IMG/VR virus record: IMGVR_UViG_3300032242_001644
Coordinates: 22,413-86,412 of that record
DNA length: 64,000 bases
Strand: one strand, 5' to 3'
DNA from: a virus
Shown here one piece after another: positions 54,929 to 64,000 of this stretch. How positions within the stretch are numbered: position 1 is the stretch's first letter; the number at the start of each line of letters is the position of its first letter. The notes beneath the pieces were generated by a model. That model was not told the DNA's origin. It saw only the letters and a list, made by a program, of their open reading frames with translations, and did not search any database. A program made the position numbers and the translations under genes.

Positions 54929-57900
54929 TTAACCCAGGATCAAGCCCCAAAGATCAGTAATGGCAGCAATCTCAGCAGCATTTAACAGAGCAACATTACC
55001 GCCACCTAACGATACATATTCAATTCCGTTAAAAACCTCGGCCACACTTAAATTTGTATTAAATCTAAAGTCACCAAGCACTGGATTTGTTGGGCGACTA
55101 GCTTCATCACCTGCTGGGATACCAATTCCGCCTGCGCCGCCGAACTGAACATACCCGTATCCTGTATTTTGCACAACAATAGCAGAAGTGGGGTCTTCGT
55201 TTTGTATATTGTTTGTGTTAAATTCAATGTTACCAAGTTTTAATTGACCAGCGTTATCCGGAGTTAGTACAATATCGGACCCAACACTAGTTGATGAAAT
55301 TGTATTTCCGCTAAACTGTAAATTATTGTTCACTAACATCGAATTGAGATTCAATCCAGCTGATGTCAGTGTCATTGCTGTGGTGTTATTGGCTACAAAA
55401 TTAATGCTGTTGTTGGTAGGATGGGCAAGAACTGTAGTTCTACGATCTGTTGAAAATAATCCGCCAAACGTAACTCTAGCTCCGTTCCATCCTGAAAATA
55501 ATGTATCAGATGTGTTTAATCTAATGTCTCCAATATTGTTTGTACTACGGGCAGCGGTAGTACCTGAAGGAATTTTTAATGCATTAGTGGCTGATATTAT
55601 TGCGCTGCCTGCACCAACTGTTAGCTCAATGTTGTCATTCAATGCCGTTGCTTTAATACTATTTGCATCGAACGTAATTTTAGGTAATGTTACATTTCCA
55701 AGACCTGCTGCAACTAATTTAATATTTGTAGAGGGCTGACTTGTTATATAATTCTGAGAAATTATTAAATTACCGTTGGTAAACATATCGGAGTATACAG
55801 TTCCGCTATTGTTAATAGTAGTGGTTGCTGTTGTTCCATTGACCCGCAATTGATTTGTTATTGCTACATTGTCATATCCTACACGTACAACTCCGCTGCC
55901 TGCGGCACGTAATTCTAAATCGGCATTAGATGCTGTGGTTGTAATCACATTATTAACTATCGACATTTCAGCAAAAAACGCACTAGTGTCAGTTACTGTT
56001 AAATTATTAGAAATACTAAAATTACCAGTTTGAACAACATTGCCAGTTTGTGTTTTATTTCCTGTGAGCAATTCGTTAGCAATTACAAGATTCTTAATCG
56101 AAGTGGCACCTGATACTTTCAACTCGTGATCAATTAACAGTGGATCATAGGCTAAATGTATATCTTTTGTTGCTCTTAACACTAAATCAACATTGCCCAA
56201 TGTGGTAATGTAGTTGTCTTTAAAAACAATGGTACCATCGCTGAAACGATCCGAAGTAATTGTTCCGCTGTTTGTTATTCCTGCAGTTGTTGTTGACCCG
56301 TCAACTTGTAAATTTGCCGCAACTCTAAATACATCATCAATTACCACGCGACCGGTTCCTGCAGCACGTAATTCTAAATCTGCGTTTGTATCAGATGTAG
56401 AAATTATGTTGTTAACAATATCAACATTGTTAAAATATGCAGCTTGGGTAACCGTTAAATTATTAGATAATGTGTAATCGCCTGTTTGATTAGAATTACC
56501 TGTTTGATTGCTAGTGCCTATATGTGTCAATAGTACCGGTGCAAGTGCATTACCAATGACAGTATTGCCTAATGTTGATGTTCCGGTAACAGCCAAATCA
56601 TTACTAATTAATACACTATTAGACGCTGCTGATACTTTTCCAGATAAATTAGGGGACAATATTAAATTATCATTGCCCACGGTGGTGGCAATATAGTTTT
56701 GTGTTATTACTATGTTGCCTTCTGTAAATGTGTCAGCTGTTATAGTTCCACTGTTGGTAATACCGTTTGTGGTAGTGGTACCTACAACACGTAAATTATT
56801 TGTAATAGTTAAATTATCATTGACTAGAACTTTGCCAGTACCTGCTGCACGTAGTTCTAGATCAGAATTGGTATTAACTGTGGTAATTTGATTGTTAACA
56901 ATATTAATATTATTAAAATATGCTGCTTGAGTAACGGTTAAATTACGAGATAAGTTATAATTACCGGTCTGTATAGTATTGCCTGTTTGGTTACTAGCAC
57001 CGGTGTGGGTTATTGCTCCGTTAATAACAGTATTAGCCAGTGTTGATAATCCGTCTACTTTTAGATTGTTTGTAATTTCAACATTACTAACACCTATAAC
57101 TTTTCCGGTTGAGTGTGCTTTTAATAATAAATTATGATTTAATCCTGTTGTAGCTATTTGGTTATCAAAAATAACGATATCACTATCATTTAATCTAGGT
57201 AAAGACAGTGTATCGGTAATTGATGCATTACCAACTGTGGTTATACCCAACGCATTTAAATTATTTTGTATTTGTACATCTGCTACAGGAACCAAAACTT
57301 GTCCGCTACCTGCTGCATATAATTCTAAATCGGCATTAGATGCTGTGGTTGCAATTTGTCCAGCTGACACTGTGATAGTTTCGAATGCCGCTTGCACAGT
57401 TGCAGATATATTTCCAGTAAGTCCGATGCCGTTAGATACGTTTCTATTGCCGGTTTGTGTTGTTGACCCAGTTTGATGAATATATCCAGTTATATTAACA
57501 TTTTTTGTTGTGCTAGTACCATTAACTGTTAGTTGATTACTGATCAACAACTCATTATTTTCAAACAGAATCTTTCCGGACCCGTGAGTTCTTAATTCTA
57601 GATCTGCATTAGAAAGGGTAGTTTGTATAATATTGTCAAAAATTTGTATATTACTATCGATTACGGATAACTGATTGATTATTTTATTCCATCGTTTACC
57701 AGGTAATATTAATGGTTCGCCTAGCCCTGTTACAAATGTATCGTTACCTAAACTAAATCTTCGATCAGCTGACGGTAAAATATCCGAACTAGTGTCTGCT
57801 TTAAACTCAGTCATATCAACAAGTTGATCGCCGAGAGTTAATGTACCTTTAACGGAAAAATTGTTGCCTACTGAAATATCTTTATTTGCTAAAATATTTT

Positions 57901-59698
57901 GTGTTAAGTTTAAATTGTCAGTATTTGATACTAGATTAACATCTCCATATGTACTTGAAATTGTATTTCCGTTAAATTTTATATTTCCAGTAGAAACTAA
58001 AGTTGAATTAATTTTAGTTTCAGATCCAGCAGTGGCAAAATTAATAGAAGATGCCCCTTGTGCGGTTACACCTACTCCATTAAATGTTACATCTCCCGTT
58101 GCATGGTCAACTGAAAATGCATCGCCTACACGAAATGTTCCTCTATTATCTAAACTTTGATAATATACACGGCCGCCGCCTATTTCAATAACTTCATTAG
58201 TTTGATTGTTTACTGACGGATCGTTAACAACATCTGTTCCGGCACCCACGTATGCAAAATTATAATCAACAAGATATATTAATGTATTTGGGCCATCTGC
58301 ATATGCACCATATATTCCGTATACTGTGGCAGATCCAATACTTCTTACCTCGGCACCATATCTAGTAACACCAAGATTTGCGTCGTATCTTCCGATACCT
58401 GTAGTTGCATGAAGAGAAATATTTGCAAAGTAGGTAAAACAATTTAACCATTCAACACGCACACCGTTAGTCATGGTCAATGCATCGGCGTTGGGCGTAA
58501 TCATTGTTACGCTTTGGAATAACATACTTGCTTCTTTAGTTGAAGTATTTGCCACGGCGCCGTCAACCAGTGCTCCTCGACCAGCATCGTGGGCATTGAC
58601 CATTGTTTCTTTGGTAATAATAGAAACATTTTGGATATACGGGCTACGAGTTGTTACCTTAATGTCCGATGCAAATCTAAAAGCATATCCAGTATCGGCA
58701 CTACTACTATAATAAAAATCCTTAACTGTTAAGTCATTAATGGTAGTTTCACCATTTAATAAAAATACATCTTTGTTATTTGTCCCAACTGTGGGTACAA
58801 TAGTAACTGATCGTATGCCAGTTCCTCTAACAGTTACACCGGCCGGCACTGTCAACGGTAGTATTTCAGTATATGTTCCAGGGTATATTAAAATCTCATC
58901 ACCTGCTGATGCCGATAGCAATGCTTTTTTAATTGTTAAAAATGTATTGGCTTCATGATCACCATAGTTAGCGTCGTTACCGTTTACTGACACATACCAA
59001 AGTTTACCCGGACGTAATGTTAAATTTACACTACCTGATTCAAAAACATCAGTAGTAATAGTTTGTCCGTTTAATAAGTTTGCATAGGTATTAAGCCACC
59101 TGTTTCCACCAGTTGCAGGATCTTCGCCTAATGAATAAAAAGTATCCTGTGTTGGCAAGAAGTTGCTGTTAACACCTGCTGCAATATTAACTTGATCTTG
59201 AGAACTATTGTTACCAAATACAATAGTACCATCAATTAAAATATCCCCACTGGCATAGATATCTCCAGTTACATTTAAATTAGTTGGGATTTCAACTGTG
59301 CCAACACCGTGTGGGCGTAGTTCTATTGATTGGTTAGTTGTTGTAGACGAGATAATATTATCATTGAAATTTAAATCGTCTGTGCGTATATTAGGAGATA
59401 TAATGCTGCCAAGTGCATTTAAGTATAAATTGCCCGTGGTAGAGCTAATTGTATTAGCATTAGGAGTGTTAATTGTTAAGGTTGGTAATTTAAGAGCGTT
59501 TGCAATTAAATCAGTTGTCTTAAAAGATGAATTTACGTTTAATGCAGTCTGTGCATCAGTTGCGCTGGTGTTTATACCAATGCTTTTATTAGTAACATCA
59601 AGGTATAGTAGTGTATCATCTACTGAAAGATCAATACCTTGTCGCTCAAGGTTGTCCCTGAGCATTACACCTGAAATTCGCCCTAGTTCTTGTCCCAT
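54929..59698 (-). CDS. Giant fibre protein, paralog of 48650..54808
   Basis: Shares LGRISG..L..NL.R.G.DL, KVTTRSPY..N.S and EWLN.FTYFA with the neighbour; ends DLWGLILG. Start set at ATG 59698 (GGAG RBS; ATAAATA at 59720-59714). Confidence 0.85.
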   Translation of the reverse strand: MGQELGRISGVMLRDNLERQGIDLSVDDTLLYLDVTNKSIGINTSATDAQTALNVNSSFKTTDLIANALKLPTLTINTPNANTISSTTGNLYLNALGSIISPNIRTDDLNFNDNIISSTTTNQSIELRPHGVGTVEIPTNLNVTGDIYASGDILIDGTIVFGNNSSQDQVNIAAGVNSNFLPTQDTFYSLGEDPATGGNRWLNTYANLLNGQTITTDVFESGSVNLTLRPGKLWYVSVNGNDANYGDHEANTFLTIKKALLSASAGDEILIYPGTYTEILPLTVPAGVTVRGTGIRSVTIVPTVGTNNKDVFLLNGETTINDLTVKDFYYSSSADTGYAFRFASDIKVTTRSPYIQNVSIITKETMVNAHDAGRGALVDGAVANTSTKEASMLFQSVTMITPNADALTMTNGVRVEWLNCFTYFANISLHATTGIGRYDANLGVTRYGAEVRSIGSATVYGIYGAYADGPNTLIYLVDYNFAYVGAGTDVVNDPSVNNQTNEVIEIGGGRVYYQSLDNRGTFRVGDAFSVDHATGDVTFNGVGVTAQGASSINFATAGSETKINSTLVSTGNIKFNGNTISSTYGDVNLVSNTDNLNLTQNILANKDISVGNNFSVKGTLTLGDQLVDMTEFKADTSSDILPSADRRFSLGNDTFVTGLGEPLILPGKRWNKIINQLSVIDSNIQIFDNIIQTTLSNADLELRTHGSGKILFENNELLISNQLTVNGTSTTKNVNITGYIHQTGSTTQTGNRNVSNGIGLTGNISATVQAAFETITVSAGQIATTASNADLELYAAGSGQVLVPVADVQIQNNLNALGITTVGNASITDTLSLPRLNDSDIVIFDNQIATTGLNHNLLLKAHSTGKVIGVSNVEITNNLKVDGLSTLANTVINGAITHTGASNQTGNTIQTGNYNLSRNLTVTQAAYFNNINIVNNQITTVNTNSDLELRAAGTGKVLVNDNLTITNNLRVVGTTTTNGITNSGTITADTFTEGNIVITQNYIATTVGNDNLILSPNLSGKVSAASNSVLISNDLAVTGTSTLGNTVIGNALAPVLLTHIGTSNQTGNSNQTGDYTLSNNLTVTQAAYFNNVDIVNNIISTSDTNADLELRAAGTGRVVIDDVFRVAANLQVDGSTTTAGITNSGTITSDRFSDGTIVFKDNYITTLGNVDLVLRATKDIHLAYDPLLIDHELKVSGATSIKNLVIANELLTGNKTQTGNVVQTGNFSISNNLTVTDTSAFFAEMSIVNNVITTTASNADLELRAAGSGVVRVGYDNVAITNQLRVNGTTATTTINNSGTVYSDMFTNGNLIISQNYITSQPSTNIKLVAAGLGNVTLPKITFDANSIKATALNDNIELTVGAGSAIISATNALKIPSGTTAARSTNNIGDIRLNTSDTLFSGWNGARVTFGGLFSTDRRTTVLAHPTNNSINFVANNTTAMTLTSAGLNLNSMLVNNNLQFSGNTISSTSVGSDIVLTPDNAGQLKLGNIEFNTNNIQNEDPTSAIVVQNTGYGYVQFGGAGGIGIPAGDEASRPTNPVLGDFRFNTNLSVAEVFNGIEYVSLGGGNVALLNAAEIAAITDLWGLILG

Positions 59699-59746
59699 AG
59701 TAGTCTCCAATAGTATTTATTGGATATGAGAGCTATTGACTTTTGG

Positions 59747-60547
59747 TTACGTGTCGAAACCTGTAATTACAGTAACGTATACTGTACCATACACGCCCAG
59801 ACTTGGCACAGGAGTGGCAAAGTTAATATAATAACCTGTTGGGTAGGCAAGATTAGTCAGAGTTGATTTACCCACAATAGTAACACTTGGGCCTGCAACG
59901 GCTGTGTTTATTGTTTGTGAAACAACAATAGTTGATGCTGTTACACCAGTAACTGTTAGATTACCGTTGTTAGTGGTGCTGCCGGATACTGTAATAGTTT
60001 GTCCAGTATGGAATCCAGCTGTTAAAAAATTTATTGTTGCAGTATTACTACTGGTAATTGTTTTTGTGCCTGATGTAAAACTAATAATTGTACCTGTTAC
60101 ATTACAGGGATTTTGTATAACTGTATAGTTGGTTCCAAACAGTTGAAATACGTTTTCAACATAGACCATTAATTGTGCGCCGGTCCATGGTGCACCGTTT
60201 TCAATAGTCGCTGGAGGTGTTGGACTCAATGGTCCGAATAGTGTTTCAACTGTATCACCAGAACCCAATGTGCTGTAGGTTACCTGTGATGGTACTTTAA
60301 ATTTAACGTTACGCCATGCACCTGCTTGATACACTTCAAATTCGCCATAGCCTGCACCAAGTACCTGCGTGTTCATTCTCATTTGGCCTTCTTTTGCTAA
60401 ACTAGTTTGTGGACGTTGAGCATCATTTCCAACAGGAATCTGTAGACTATTCTTCGAATTAGTTACAATTCTGCCGTAGGGATTTACAAGAAGTGTTCGA
60501 TCACTTACAGAAAATTTAGAAATGTTTTTTGTTTTTAAAAATTTCAT
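59747..60547 (-). CDS. Virion structural protein (hypothetical)
   Basis: LQIPVG.DAQRP...EGQMRMNT...FEVY motif shared with the C-termini of the giant fibres. Confidence 0.7.
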   Translation of the reverse strand: MKFLKTKNISKFSVSDRTLLVNPYGRIVTNSKNSLQIPVGNDAQRPQTSLAKEGQMRMNTQVLGAGYGEFEVYQAGAWRNVKFKVPSQVTYSTLGSGDTVETLFGPLSPTPPATIENGAPWTGAQLMVYVENVFQLFGTNYTVIQNPCNVTGTIISFTSGTKTITSSNTATINFLTAGFHTGQTITVSGSTTNNGNLTVTGVTASTIVVSQTINTAVAGPSVTIVGKSTLTNLAYPTGYYINFATPVPSLGVYGTVYVTVITGFDT

Positions 60548-60894: not shown

Positions 60895-61839
60895 TTAAAA
60901 TAACATGCTAAAAACTAATGCTTTGTTTTTACTTATTAACTCATCGGACTTGGATGAATTAACGAAATATATTCCACTATCTGCTGCACCGGGCGTTTTA
61001 CTATAAACAATGCTGGTTCCACTAACTGAAGATGGATCTACAGTTATTTGATCCAACTGTATTGCATAATTTGTTTCTACCTTACCTGTTCCGTTGGTTA
61101 ACAATAACAGGTTGCTAGTAGAATTTGTATTCTCAATAATGTTTTGTCTAAATTCAAGATCATGAATAAATGTTTTATCAGAAAACGCTGTTACATTATT
61201 GTGTCCATCAACTGTTAATCGAATAGAGCTAAAAGAAACACCGTCATTTAATACGTCTTTATCTCTTGCAATAACAGTAGTATCATCAGATCCTAACGAC
61301 GGTTGAGGAGCTCTGTTGGCAATGGCATAGTCAACATATCCTTTGTTGGGAATATCGTTGTCTCTACCTCTATTTCTAATCTGTGTTGTATAATCGTTTG
61401 GTGCCATTATTGTTGGCACGGTAATTACACCTATGTGATCACCAATTAGAGCTAGATCACCACCACTGACTGTGGCATCGGTAATAATTGTTCTTACCTT
61501 AATTTTACTATTTGTTGAAGTATAGCCTGCTTGCGTATTTTCAACAAACTCCCACGCTGACGACGTTTCGTTATACAGCACTGCAACATTATTTGCACTA
61601 CCTCTGTTAACTTCAATGCCTGCATAGGTTAATGTAATACCAGAGTGACTTGGGGACTCTCCAGTATTGACATTGATAATATTATCTTCAATGTATAAGT
61701 TATTCACATTTACGTCGGTACGTGTACCCTGAACCGTGAGGTTCCCAGTTATAACAACCAAACTAGTATCTAAGGTAATAGTTCCGTTGTTAGTTGCCTG
61801 TACTTTGTAGTCGCCGTTGGTGCGAATAACTTGAGTCAT
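60895..61839 (-). CDS. Fibre-like structural protein
   Basis: ITGNLTVQGT..IEDNII..N...AGIEVNRG and IPNKGYVD motifs; ends KALVFSMLF. Confidence 0.75.
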   Translation of the reverse strand: MTQVIRTNGDYKVQATNNGTITLDTSLVVITGNLTVQGTRTDVNVNNLYIEDNIINVNTGESPSHSGITLTYAGIEVNRGSANNVAVLYNETSSAWEFVENTQAGYTSTNSKIKVRTIITDATVSGGDLALIGDHIGVITVPTIMAPNDYTTQIRNRGRDNDIPNKGYVDYAIANRAPQPSLGSDDTTVIARDKDVLNDGVSFSSIRLTVDGHNNVTAFSDKTFIHDLEFRQNIIENTNSTSNLLLLTNGTGKVETNYAIQLDQITVDPSSVSGTSIVYSKTPGAADSGIYFVNSSKSDELISKNKALVFSMLF

Positions 61840-61853
61840 TGTCTAATCCTAAA

Positions 61854-62249
61854 TTAGTATTTGCCAGTTACTAGTGTTAGCTGAATATAATCTTCAGAAG
61901 AATCATTCACTAGAACCCATGTGTAGCGATTACCACTGAAATCAGTAGCAGTACGCTTGTGCAATTGGCGAATAACCACTGGGCCGTTGTCTGCTGCTTG
62001 GCCTTGATTTGTGTAACCAGTCATGACCATTTGTCCCGCAGCAGTAATACTGGAGACTAGTAAACACTTGCCTGTACCGTCGGCGTTGGTTACTTTGTAA
62101 CTTCTTGATCCTGTTTGTTTTACAATGTAGGCTGCTTTTGCAGTACCAAATGTAGGAATACGGGCAGATACTTTGATACCTGCTTGTGTTGTTGCGTAGT
62201 CACCAAATACTAATGTACCGGCAACATCTCTTTTTACTGGGCGTCCCAT
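61854..62249 (-). CDS. MGRP-family small protein (possible capsid-associated)
   Basis: MGRP start and YIVKQTGSRSYKV motif shared with the N-terminal domain of 62346..63416. Confidence 0.7.
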   Translation of the reverse strand: MGRPVKRDVAGTLVFGDYATTQAGIKVSARIPTFGTAKAAYIVKQTGSRSYKVTNADGTGKCLLVSSITAAGQMVMTGYTNQGQAADNGPVVIRQLHKRTATDFSGNRYTWVLVNDSSEDYIQLTLVTGKY

Positions 62250-62339
62250 TTTGTTTCTCCTTAATGTATTGACGTTCTAGGTCTACGGGGATGGTACCCC
62301 ATAAAGTCCGGACCTATTTTAGCGGACAGTTATATTTAT
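62250..62339 (-). ncRNA. Conserved structured leader, copy 1
   Basis: ATAAATA box, hairpin UAUGGGG/CCCCGUA, GACCUAGAACGUC, then an AAGGAG RBS. Confidence 0.65.
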
Positions 62340-62345
62340 TACAGA

Positions 62346-63416
62346 TTAAAATCCGCCTGTTGCTGTGTTATAGGCAAACTGAAGACCCGGTCCGTTTAGT
62401 TTTGTACCATCTTGACCAAGTGCAAATAATTGAAAATTACATCCGCCATTGTACTCGGTCATCCAAATACGGATTGGATACCATTTTGTAGAATCCATAG
62501 TTAAACTATTACGAGCACCACATTGAGCAGCTTGCCCTGGCATAGTTTTATTTGAACTATATAAATCATAGTTTGAAACAGTATATCCGCTTACTGCGTT
62601 ACTACCGATCCATACTGCGTTGTCATCGTCTGACTGACTAAAGAAGTTCCATTTTTGTGTTGTTGGAACTTTTACATAGCCCAGCCACTCCATTGAGAAG
62701 TTTTGTTGTCCTAATACTGCTCCATCGCTTTGCTGACCCCAACTTATGTATGTATCAACTACATCTGCTAAATGTTGGCCAGTTGTAAACAACGAAGTGT
62801 TCCAAGAACCGATAGCAGAACCTGCGGCAGTACCTAAATTACCATTGTATTTTCTACGTAGTAATCCTGTAGCTGAGTTAGATACTGTACTAATACCACC
62901 GCTGGCTGTGGCCGGAGTTCCTCTATCTGCATAGCTAACACCAGTAAATGCTGTAACTGCTGTTTTGAATGTTCCAGAACCTGGAATTGGGTATGTTACG
63001 TCAATGTCATCACCTTCTAAATCAACAGAGTTATTCATTGCGGCATTTGTACCAGCTTCTTCAACTTGCCAACGTCCATCAGTTGTACTTGTATCAAAAC
63101 TCCATGGCATGCTACGATCTTGGCCGTTGTAATAGAACGTTGCTTTGTGGCGGGCAATTTTTGTTGCCTGTTGAATTGTGTTGTCATCATACTTAAATGT
63201 GATAGACATTTCACCTGCTTGTAGGTCTGCGCTGGCTTTATCTTTTAGATAACAAATAGCAGTAACGCCATTCTCATCTTTGCATTTGAATCTTTTAGAA
63301 CCTGTTTGTTCTACAATGTAACCTTTGACACTTGAAGTACCATTATGAAATTGTACTTTAAGATTATTGAGTACATTTGCACCAAAGAATTGTTGTTTGC
63401 TTAATGGACGTCCCAT
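62346..63416 (-). CDS. MGRP-domain protein fused to a PA14/GLEYA-like carbohydrate-binding domain
   Basis: PA14 signature FSMEWLGYVKVP....WNF...SDD...VWIG...YPIRI..EY.GG; gene follows gp23. Confidence 0.75.
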   Translation of the reverse strand: MGRPLSKQQFFGANVLNNLKVQFHNGTSSVKGYIVEQTGSKRFKCKDENGVTAICYLKDKASADLQAGEMSITFKYDDNTIQQATKIARHKATFYYNGQDRSMPWSFDTSTTDGRWQVEEAGTNAAMNNSVDLEGDDIDVTYPIPGSGTFKTAVTAFTGVSYADRGTPATASGGISTVSNSATGLLRRKYNGNLGTAAGSAIGSWNTSLFTTGQHLADVVDTYISWGQQSDGAVLGQQNFSMEWLGYVKVPTTQKWNFFSQSDDDNAVWIGSNAVSGYTVSNYDLYSSNKTMPGQAAQCGARNSLTMDSTKWYPIRIWMTEYNGGCNFQLFALGQDGTKLNGPGLQFAYNTATGGF

Positions 63417-63487
63417 TTGTTTCTCCTTAAATTGACGTTCTAGGTCTACGCGGTGGGTGCCGCATAATAATTAGACATAGTATTTAG
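63417..63487 (-). ncRNA. Conserved structured leader, copy 2
   Basis: CTAAATA box, hairpin UAUGCGG/CCGCGUA, GACCUAGAACGUC, then an AAGGAG RBS. Confidence 0.65.
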
Positions 63488-63491
63488 CCAC

Positions 63492-63521
63492 AAAAGAAAA
63501 AGGACTCCGAAGAGTCCTTTT
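63492..63521 (-). terminator. Rho-independent terminator with cUUCGg tetraloop after the major capsid gene
   Basis: AAAAGGACTC-TTCG-GAGTCCTTTTTCTTTT on the minus strand. Confidence 0.92.
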
Positions 63522-63548
63522 CTTGTTTAACAAACTATTAGGTTTGAA

Positions 63549-64000
63549 TTAGCTGAAAGATACAGAAGTATCAGTAATGCCAACTTGACCTAGGTAGTCA
63601 GCTGCGTTACCTAGAGAAGACGCAGCGTTAGACAACTCAACATAACCATAACGTGTCATGAATGAAACGACTGGTTCGAATGTTGATGGATCCAATACAA
63701 CACCACTGCTCATCAATGGAATGTATGGGCAATAGAATGCAGGAGCGTCAGACTCAGAAGCGCCTTTGTAACCAACTAGTACGCCTGTGCTGTCAGCGGC
63801 ATAACCGTCAACATAAACACGCATAGAGCTGTTCAATGTACCAACGAACTTAGTGTTTGTTGGAGCTTCGAATGTGCCTTCTGTAGTACGAGCAAACGCA
63901 CTGGTTGTAGCAGACTGAAGAATTGTCAATGCTTGGTTAGAAACAACAGCCCAGTTACCAGAACCACGACGTGTACGTTGAGCAATCAAGTTGCTAACAC
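63549..64000 (-). CDS. gp23: Major capsid protein (gp23-like), C-terminal part
   Basis: IAQRTRRGSGN, VGYKG, AFYCPYIPL and DPSTFEPVVSFMTRYG; the frame continues off the right edge. Confidence 0.95.
   Translation of the reverse strand, partial: VSNLIAQRTRRGSGNWAVVSNQALTILQSATTSAFARTTEGTFEAPTNTKFVGTLNSSMRVYVDGYAADSTGVLVGYKGASESDAPAFYCPYIPLMSSGVVLDPSTFEPVVSFMTRYGYVELSNAASSLGNAADYLGQVGITDTSVSFS

Follow-up and report, generated by a model that had tools for sequence, protein, structure and literature searches.

The window analysed here is a 64,000-nucleotide (nt) stretch of the IMG/VR virus record IMGVR_UViG_3300032242_001644, the whole of which measures 86.4 kilobases (kb) and is about 24% complete according to CheckV. 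It contains two similar leader sequences, each of which ends at the start codon of its own open reading frame (ORF; 61854-62249 and 62346-63416), and both leaders and all genes around them lie on the minus strand. In the sense of the messenger RNA (mRNA), the order is capsid gene, terminator-like hairpin, promoter-like box, leader copy 2, ORF of 356 amino acids (aa), second promoter-like box, leader copy 1 and 131-aa ORF. The capsid gene (63549-64000, running off the window) is the 3' part of a gene for a major capsid protein of the Gp23 family (Pfam PF07068, E 1.4e-42), which is about 70% identical in nucleotides to its counterparts in Rak2-like and PA5oct-like jumbo phages. Behind it stands an intrinsic-terminator-like hairpin with a U run (63497-63522), consisting of an 11-base-pair (bp) stem, a UUCG loop and CUUUUG. 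Downstream of this hairpin follow a box CTAAATA (63481-63487) and leader copy 2 (63414-63485), in which a Shine-Dalgarno (SD) sequence AAGGAGA (63422-63428) precedes the start codon (63414-63416) of the gene for the 356-aa protein (62346-63416). The second unit comprises a box AATAAATA (62333-62340), leader copy 1 (62247-62327), its SD sequence AAGGAGA (62256-62262) and the start codon (62247-62249) of the gene for the 131-aa protein (61854-62249); both proteins begin with MGRP and share an N-terminal domain. The two boxes resemble TATAAATA and are putative late promoters of the phage T4 type, for which such a box is expected about 6-8 nt before the transcript start and a -35 element is not. 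Across the whole window, ATAAATA is scarcer than expected (11 copies against about 25) and nine of the 11 copies lie on the gene-bearing minus strand, which fits a late-promoter signal avoided elsewhere.

The two leaders share a 20-nt identical core, CGUAGACCUAGAACGUCAAU (62268-62287 and 63431-63450), a 19-nt version of which occurs exactly twice in the window, where chance would give 0.02 occurrences. Downstream of the core, the two copies have UUAAGGAGAAACAAA(A)UGGGACG as their ribosome-site stretch, which is longer by one A in copy 1. Each copy contains a hairpin, P2, which reads UAUGGGG-UACCAU-CCCCGUA in copy 1 (62284-62303) and UAUGCGG-CACCCA-CCGCGUA in copy 2 (63447-63466), so that the copies differ in their loops and by a true swap of a C:G for a G:C pair. 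P2 is directly followed by a mini-hairpin, P3, with the sequence GAC-CUAGAAC-GUC in both (62271-62283 and 63434-63446). The core, late boxes, hairpins, mini-hairpin and extra A listed in the initial annotation, a model's reading of the sequence, were thus all recovered. From P2 to AUG the copies are identical at 49 of 60 positions (82%), against 133 of 247 matching aligned columns for the first 210 nt of the two genes and 33% identity over 81 residues (BLASTP) for the two proteins.

An Rfam 15 scan gave end-to-end alignments of both leaders (model positions 1-84 of 84) to RF02980, the freshwater-2 RNA, a family of type Cis-reg with an 84-position model and a gathering score of 49.9 bits. By this alignment both leaders are copies of the freshwater-2 motif, already catalogued, and the proposal that the motif is undescribed is refuted, a match to a known Rfam family being the refuting condition that the initial annotation had itself set. 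Copy 1 scored 49.1 bits and copy 2 46.9 bits, with E-values of 4e-6 and 1e-5 in a search of 1.4 kb and of 6e-8 and 2e-7 in a search of the entire 86-kb record; a third candidate in the record (G000, 57989-58062) was rejected as noise (13.7 bits, E 0.76). The likeness to freshwater-2 extends over the full-length alignment, the variable 5' hairpin P1 of copy 1, P2, the P3 loop CUAGAAC, the 3' end AAGGAGAAAAcAAAUG and the source in freshwater viral metagenomes. In the model the hairpin with the swapped pair corresponds to P2 (UUAUGCgG-loop-CcGCGUA), all seven pairs of which form in both window copies, and the mini-hairpin corresponds to P3, whose conserved loop cUAGAAC is present in both with three of the four model pairs used. 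P1, a variable hairpin two nt before P2, is formed in copy 1 by GUCCG-(12 nt)-CGGAC (62306-62327), whereas the alignment of copy 2 has four non-standard pairs there; since the model's P1 falls on the promoter box in copy 2, this transcript probably has no P1. The SD sequence AAGGAGA and the A-rich spacer are unpaired in the model consensus, which marks the P2 loop as unpaired too and stops at AUG.

Counting against the assignment, copy 1 missed the gathering score by 0.8 bits and copy 2 by 3 bits, and a scan of the window at Rfam gathering thresholds reported no match, so that routine annotation would overlook both. The shortfall is attributable to features in which the window copies differ from the model, namely a P3 of 3 rather than 4 bp, a shorter spacer between P3 and the SD sequence and, in copy 2, no real P1. 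Searches of five related contigs gave RF02980 scores of 46-68 bits, and relatives at 67.9 and 59.5 bits pass the gathering score. Freshwater-2 is not known to have an assigned function beyond its Rfam type label. The motif is reportedly a product of the 224-motif comparative screen published by Weinberg and colleagues in 2017. The main text of that article (Weinberg et al., 2017; PMC5737381) does not name freshwater-2, and a full-text literature search for 'freshwater-2' returned nothing relevant.

Homologous leaders were collected by three pattern scans of IMG/VR, which yielded at least about 185 loci with patterns that demanded CGUA, CUAGAAC and AAGGAGA. A covariation test, for which 136 distinct leaders were aligned with MAFFT, confirmed that the pairing is conserved in homologs, with P2 paired in 99.6% and P3 in 99.1% of cells. 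Changes on both sides of a pair were found in 224 cells, against 55 +/- 6 in shuffled alignments, and none of 500 shuffles matched the observed covariation; sliding the 3' partners by 1-3 columns reduced pairing to 28-40%. Covariation in P2 is found at two positions: position 6 is G:C in 76, A:U in 38 and U:A in 16 sequences, and position 5, the pair swapped within the window, is C:G in 126 and G:C in four. The compensatory change noticed between the two copies is genuine. All four model pairs of P3 show changes on both sides, giving more than 15 different stems. P1 occurs as 92 distinct stems with a mean length of 5.6 bp, against 4.1 bp in shuffles, and in about one tenth of the homologs its stem has 3 bp or less. 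Furthermore, 132 of the 136 leaders share a U:G pair in P2, which on the opposite strand would be an A-C mismatch and thus assigns the structure to the sense RNA. The leaders are sense-strand structured RNAs kept by selection, and the earlier proposal of a cis-acting leader RNA under purifying selection is upheld by the family covariation and by the contrast between leaders (82% identical) and proteins (33%).

Among the matches listed, the leaders share one order of elements, with an (A/C)TAAATA box followed by a variable hairpin, P2, P3, AAGGAGA and an ORF. The sole exception, L070, is an evident chance match to the search pattern and was set aside. All other parsed leaders among these matches precede an ORF that starts with MG(R/K) or MA(R/K/N). 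At least 136 loci contain a Gp23 capsid gene upstream on the same strand, often 140-190 nt away as in the window, and these upstream capsid proteins are 78-90% identical to that of the window; the placement of the window's leaders before two paralogous virion-protein genes beside a capsid gene is upheld. At the corresponding position, TAAATA is conserved to at least 90% in an alignment of 111 homologs. In each of three near-complete genomes (318-374 kb), RF02980 has one match at E 0.01 or better. On contig L057 the tandem arrangement of the window recurs, a 367-aa gene being followed by a 133-aa gene and both having leaders of their own; such recurrence, taken with the 33% protein identity of the two paralogs in the window, speaks against their recent duplication, and both leaders were retained. 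The leader was not found in any isolated phage of the INPHARED set, in which homologs of the encoded proteins only were detected, in the PA5oct group. Judged from sequence and gene order, freshwater-2 is here the 5' leader of a predicted late mRNA for a virion-protein family in uncultured, freshwater, T4-like jumbo phages.

In a sub-lineage of the leaders (including L004, L007, L015, L019, L026 and L031), AUCGGRCUUCU is conserved in the interval from P3 to the SD sequence, a segment that the window copies lack; its CUUCU could pair with AGGAG of the SD sequence, or its UUCU with AGAA of the P3 loop, and it would be a lineage-specific addition. In four freshwater metatranscriptome libraries, contigs 80-99% alike to the capsid gene (63576-64000) are numerous, their word depth adding up to thousands, so that the phage's relatives seem to be represented in RNA libraries of several studies. 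The capsid gene is covered by contigs of relatives (80-95% alike) from RNA libraries, and the leaders by a few of low depth (62224-62332 and 63301-63448, for example). Such contigs convey no starts, ends, strand or expression ranking and may include DNA carry-over, and no claim on expression or processing is drawn from them.

The genes behind the leaders encode a single protein family, the N-terminus of which is conserved (MGRP..., MARP... or MARG...). Codons 2-4 vary synonymously (GGA/GGU, CGU/CGC/AGA and CCN), which indicates that the N-terminus is conserved as protein and not as RNA. The family ORFs range from 117 to 521 aa and combine the common N-terminal domain with varied C-termini. The C-terminus of the 356-aa protein matches Pfam PF10528 (GLEYA, E 6.7e-13) and PF07691 (PA14, E 3e-7) at about residues 224-330, and such lectin-like domains are present in three of 122 family members, including this one, which suggests that it is a lectin-like protein displayed on the virion. 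The 131-aa protein has a predicted fold of two small beta-barrels (AlphaFold2; mean predicted local distance difference test score 83). Its structural matches are uncharacterised proteins of the jumbo phages Atu_ph07 and fHe-Yen9-04 ('possible surface protein'), with Foldseek values for the Atu_ph07 protein of E 1e-6 to 3e-4 and template-modelling (TM) scores of 0.6-0.7, while searches of Pfam and PHROGs returned no match and Foldseek against the PDB none at E 0.001 or better. A homolog of the N-terminal domain is also encoded by the Pseudomonas phage PA5oct (EST35_0383, 39% identity over 67 aa), where it is annotated as 'structural protein' with the note ESI-MS/MS (electrospray ionisation tandem mass spectrometry). 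This annotation and the PA14/GLEYA C-terminus fit a virion surface protein. That the leaders might couple the synthesis of decoration proteins to assembly, as the initial annotation suggested, may be regarded as a reasonable hypothesis. Phages PA5oct, Atu_ph07 and fHe-Yen9-04 thus share the homologous N-terminal domain with the window, and the PA5oct gene (L129, MK797984 262300-262390) additionally shares a late-promoter-like box, CTAAATAG, but is preceded by a short unstructured leader. Further downstream in the window, beyond the two MGRP genes and three small structural ORFs, lies a 1593-aa repeat-rich, fibre-like ORF (54929-59710, minus strand), and the neighbours at 59747-60547 and 60895-61839 show weak matches to the PHROG categories 'virion structural protein' and 'head protein'.

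Beyond the pairs that the Rfam model contains, a further complementarity links the 3' part of the P2 loop with the start codon and with codon 2. In copy 2 the loop bases CCCA (63454-63457) are complementary to UGGG (63412-63415), and in copy 1 the bases CCAU (62291-62294) are complementary to AUGG (62246-62249). Across 142 leaders, the longest complement between loop and start region has a mean of 4.0 nt, compared with 3.33 +/- 0.06 nt for shuffled loops. Most genes among the matches listed start with AUGGG (Met-Gly) and all others with AUGGC (Met-Ala), and the loops follow this distinction: those of AUGGG genes fit AUGGG better than AUGGCA (4.04 against 3.02), and those of AUGGC genes show the reverse (3.91 against 3.28). 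Loops with ..GCCA.. are found for AUGGC genes in several lineages, whose P1, P3 and spacer are not alike. One AUGGC lineage has AACAGCAA or AAAAGCAA loops (AGC:GCU), in place of which its Met-Gly sisters have AAAUCCAA (UCC:GGA), and the sole AUGGGC gene among the matches listed has the loop CGCCU. GCC or AGC occurs in 31 of the 43 loops of AUGGC genes, against five of the 99 loops of AUGGG genes (Fisher p 1.8e-16, uncorrected for relatedness). On a tree of the protein N-terminal domain the start type switches 13 times; 13 independent G/C contrasts contain about 5.8 loop changes in the matching direction and about none in the opposite one (sign test over all branches, median p 0.03). Furthermore, the fixed-register column pair 32-105 is C:G in 92 and G:C in 15 sequences. 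As the paired loop bases lie directly next to the 3' strand of P2, the geometry is that of a classical H-type pseudoknot. We consider it probable from these comparisons that the P2 loop pairs with the start codon region, an interaction that lies outside the Rfam model.

The explanation that we favour as a whole, at somewhat better than even confidence, is that freshwater-2 serves as a late-mRNA leader which, with a start-codon pseudoknot, would act as a translational operator, possibly an autogenous one. The proposed unit would consist of a T4-type late-promoter box, the variable P1, P2 (UUAUGCNG...CNGCGUA), P3 with its loop CUAGAAC, the strong SD sequence AAGGAGA and an MGRP or MARP gene. Pairing of the last 3-4 nt of the P2 loop would involve the start codon together with the opening bases of codon 2, and the resulting H-type pseudoknot would stack on P2, with P3 and the ribosome-binding site placed in a long connecting loop. 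By holding the initiation codon, the pseudoknot could set or switch translation, and the invariant P3 loop and the conserved closing pairs of P2 would offer a likely surface for a protein repressor. Whether the leader is a protein-regulated operator at all we judge to be close to an even question, leaning slightly towards the negative. The simplest candidate for a repressor would be the encoded MGRP-family protein when not taken up by assembly; the fact that the motif is linked exclusively to a single gene family and the covariation between loop and start codon lend indirect support to such autogenous control. A more detailed version, in which the SH3-like N-terminal domain of unassembled MGRP or MARP protein binds the P3 loop and the base of P2 and thereby locks the start-codon pseudoknot, is a reading that we put forward only tentatively and regard as rather doubtful.

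Several observations weigh against this interpretation. The invariance of CGUA, CUAGAAC and AAGGAGA in the homolog set is partly an effect of ascertainment because the search patterns required them; the same three motifs are capitalised in the Rfam consensus. Folded as single sequences, the two leaders of the window have unremarkable energies (z -0.9 and -1.3). The proposed pseudoknot stem has 3-4 bp and shifts its register between lineages, and about one tenth of the leaders show no convincing match between loop and start region (for example, L058, L141 and L174 have none, and the changes in L158 and L170 are uncompensated). A strict independent-pairs test confined to well-supported branches retained five pairs only and was not significant. 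With regard to a binding protein, VIA-align comparison of the N-terminal domain returned only SH3/Tudor-like barrels at Z 4.7 or less, a fold that fits many functions and gives no evidence of RNA binding. Finally, the leader region of the PA5oct gene has no freshwater-2 match, and this homolog does without the leader, which implies that the RNA is the addition of one lineage and that the protein family is broader than the RNA.

Alternatively, freshwater-2 may be a constitutive leader without a regulator, whose compact 5' fold, perhaps with the pseudoknot as part of it, guards the late mRNA from 5'-end-dependent decay or tunes or boosts initiation at a very strong ribosome-binding site, and promoter, leader and N-terminal domain may have been inherited and duplicated as one cassette; we hold this to be possible, though unlikely. 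The motif begins within a few nt of the predicted late transcription start, and this, the SD sequence and spacer left unpaired in the consensus, as well as the PA5oct homologs that work without the leader, are in keeping with such a role. In addition, near-complete genomes contain only one or two copies, always with this gene family, a linkage that descent alone could explain. However, a pure stabiliser would need neither an invariant 7-nt P3 loop nor a P2 loop that tracks codon 2, and the RF02980 search found the motif absent from other late genes in the same 86-kb record.

It is improbable that the leader works as a two-state switch, as envisaged when the upstream segments UAGGUC and GUCUA were first noticed to be able to compete with P3 for the invariant GACCUA and UAGAC. 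These complementary segments do exist in both window copies, and minimum-energy single-sequence folds swap the 3-bp P3 for them, which is uninformative. Across 142 homologs, however, complementarity between the upstream segment and the P3 region is at the level of chance (5.19 nt against 5.33 nt in shuffles), and homologs with another P3 (GGC, GCGG, CGGC and others) show no matching change upstream. A riboswitch that senses a small molecule or ion on a late gene would agree with the conserved unpaired nucleotides, the 5' leader position and the Rfam type Cis-reg, but it too is hardly likely, as the conserved core is a small one of about 50 nt, the genes behind it encode virion structural proteins and not metabolic or transport functions, and the motif is found in one phage lineage only among the matches listed. 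Least probable by far is that the likeness of the leaders stems from duplication or gene conversion in the recent past, or from a short upstream ORF that is conserved, with no selection on RNA, a view to which the 20-nt block identical in both copies and an AUG inside P2, whose frame stops at the UAA of UAAGGAG in both, lend some appeal, but which is contradicted by the mere 33% protein identity, by the tandem recurring on L057 and by covariation that points to RNA pairing. An upstream ORF from the P2 AUG was examined as a candidate and rejected: its frame, stop and length (2 to 541 codons) are not conserved, and 13 of 142 leaders, some of them mis-parsed, have no AUG in the inferred 5' strand of P2.

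The favoured arrangement of a start-codon pseudoknot has parallels among known systems. The operator in the Escherichia coli rpsO mRNA is a pseudoknot stabilised by ribosomal protein S15. In freshwater-2 a leader hairpin loop would likewise pair with the beginning of the coding sequence, so that a pseudoknot surrounds the initiation site, and the linkage to a single gene family suggests feedback by the product; the two differ in that they share no sequence or family kinship, that the product here is a virion and not a ribosomal protein, and that binding by the leader's own protein is a proposal. In phage T4 the leader of gene 32 contains a pseudoknot which mediates autogenous translational control, lying upstream of the ribosome-binding site and nucleating cooperative binding of gp32 to single-stranded RNA. 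Both cases concern a T4-type phage and a structured 5' leader with a (here proposed) pseudoknot for translational control of a protein needed in set amounts, but in freshwater-2 it is the start codon itself that the proposed second stem would cover, and it is that of a late structural gene.

The two leaders do not represent a new RNA class, as the motif was already catalogued; what is added is its biological setting and a probable start-codon pairing absent from the Rfam model. Genuine members of the family can escape the Rfam gathering score, as the two copies do by 0.8 and 3 bits. A setting is provided for an orphan, 'environmental' motif of Rfam, namely that of the predicted late-mRNA leader of virion-protein genes which neighbour the Gp23 capsid gene in uncultured and abundant jumbo phages of fresh water, and the pairing with the start codon points to translational control. 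If the autogenous version of the operator is true, synthesis of each of these capsid or virion-surface proteins would be throttled until assembly consumes it; among the structural proteins of jumbo phages this would be the first described case of such feedback, and freshwater-2 would gain a function.

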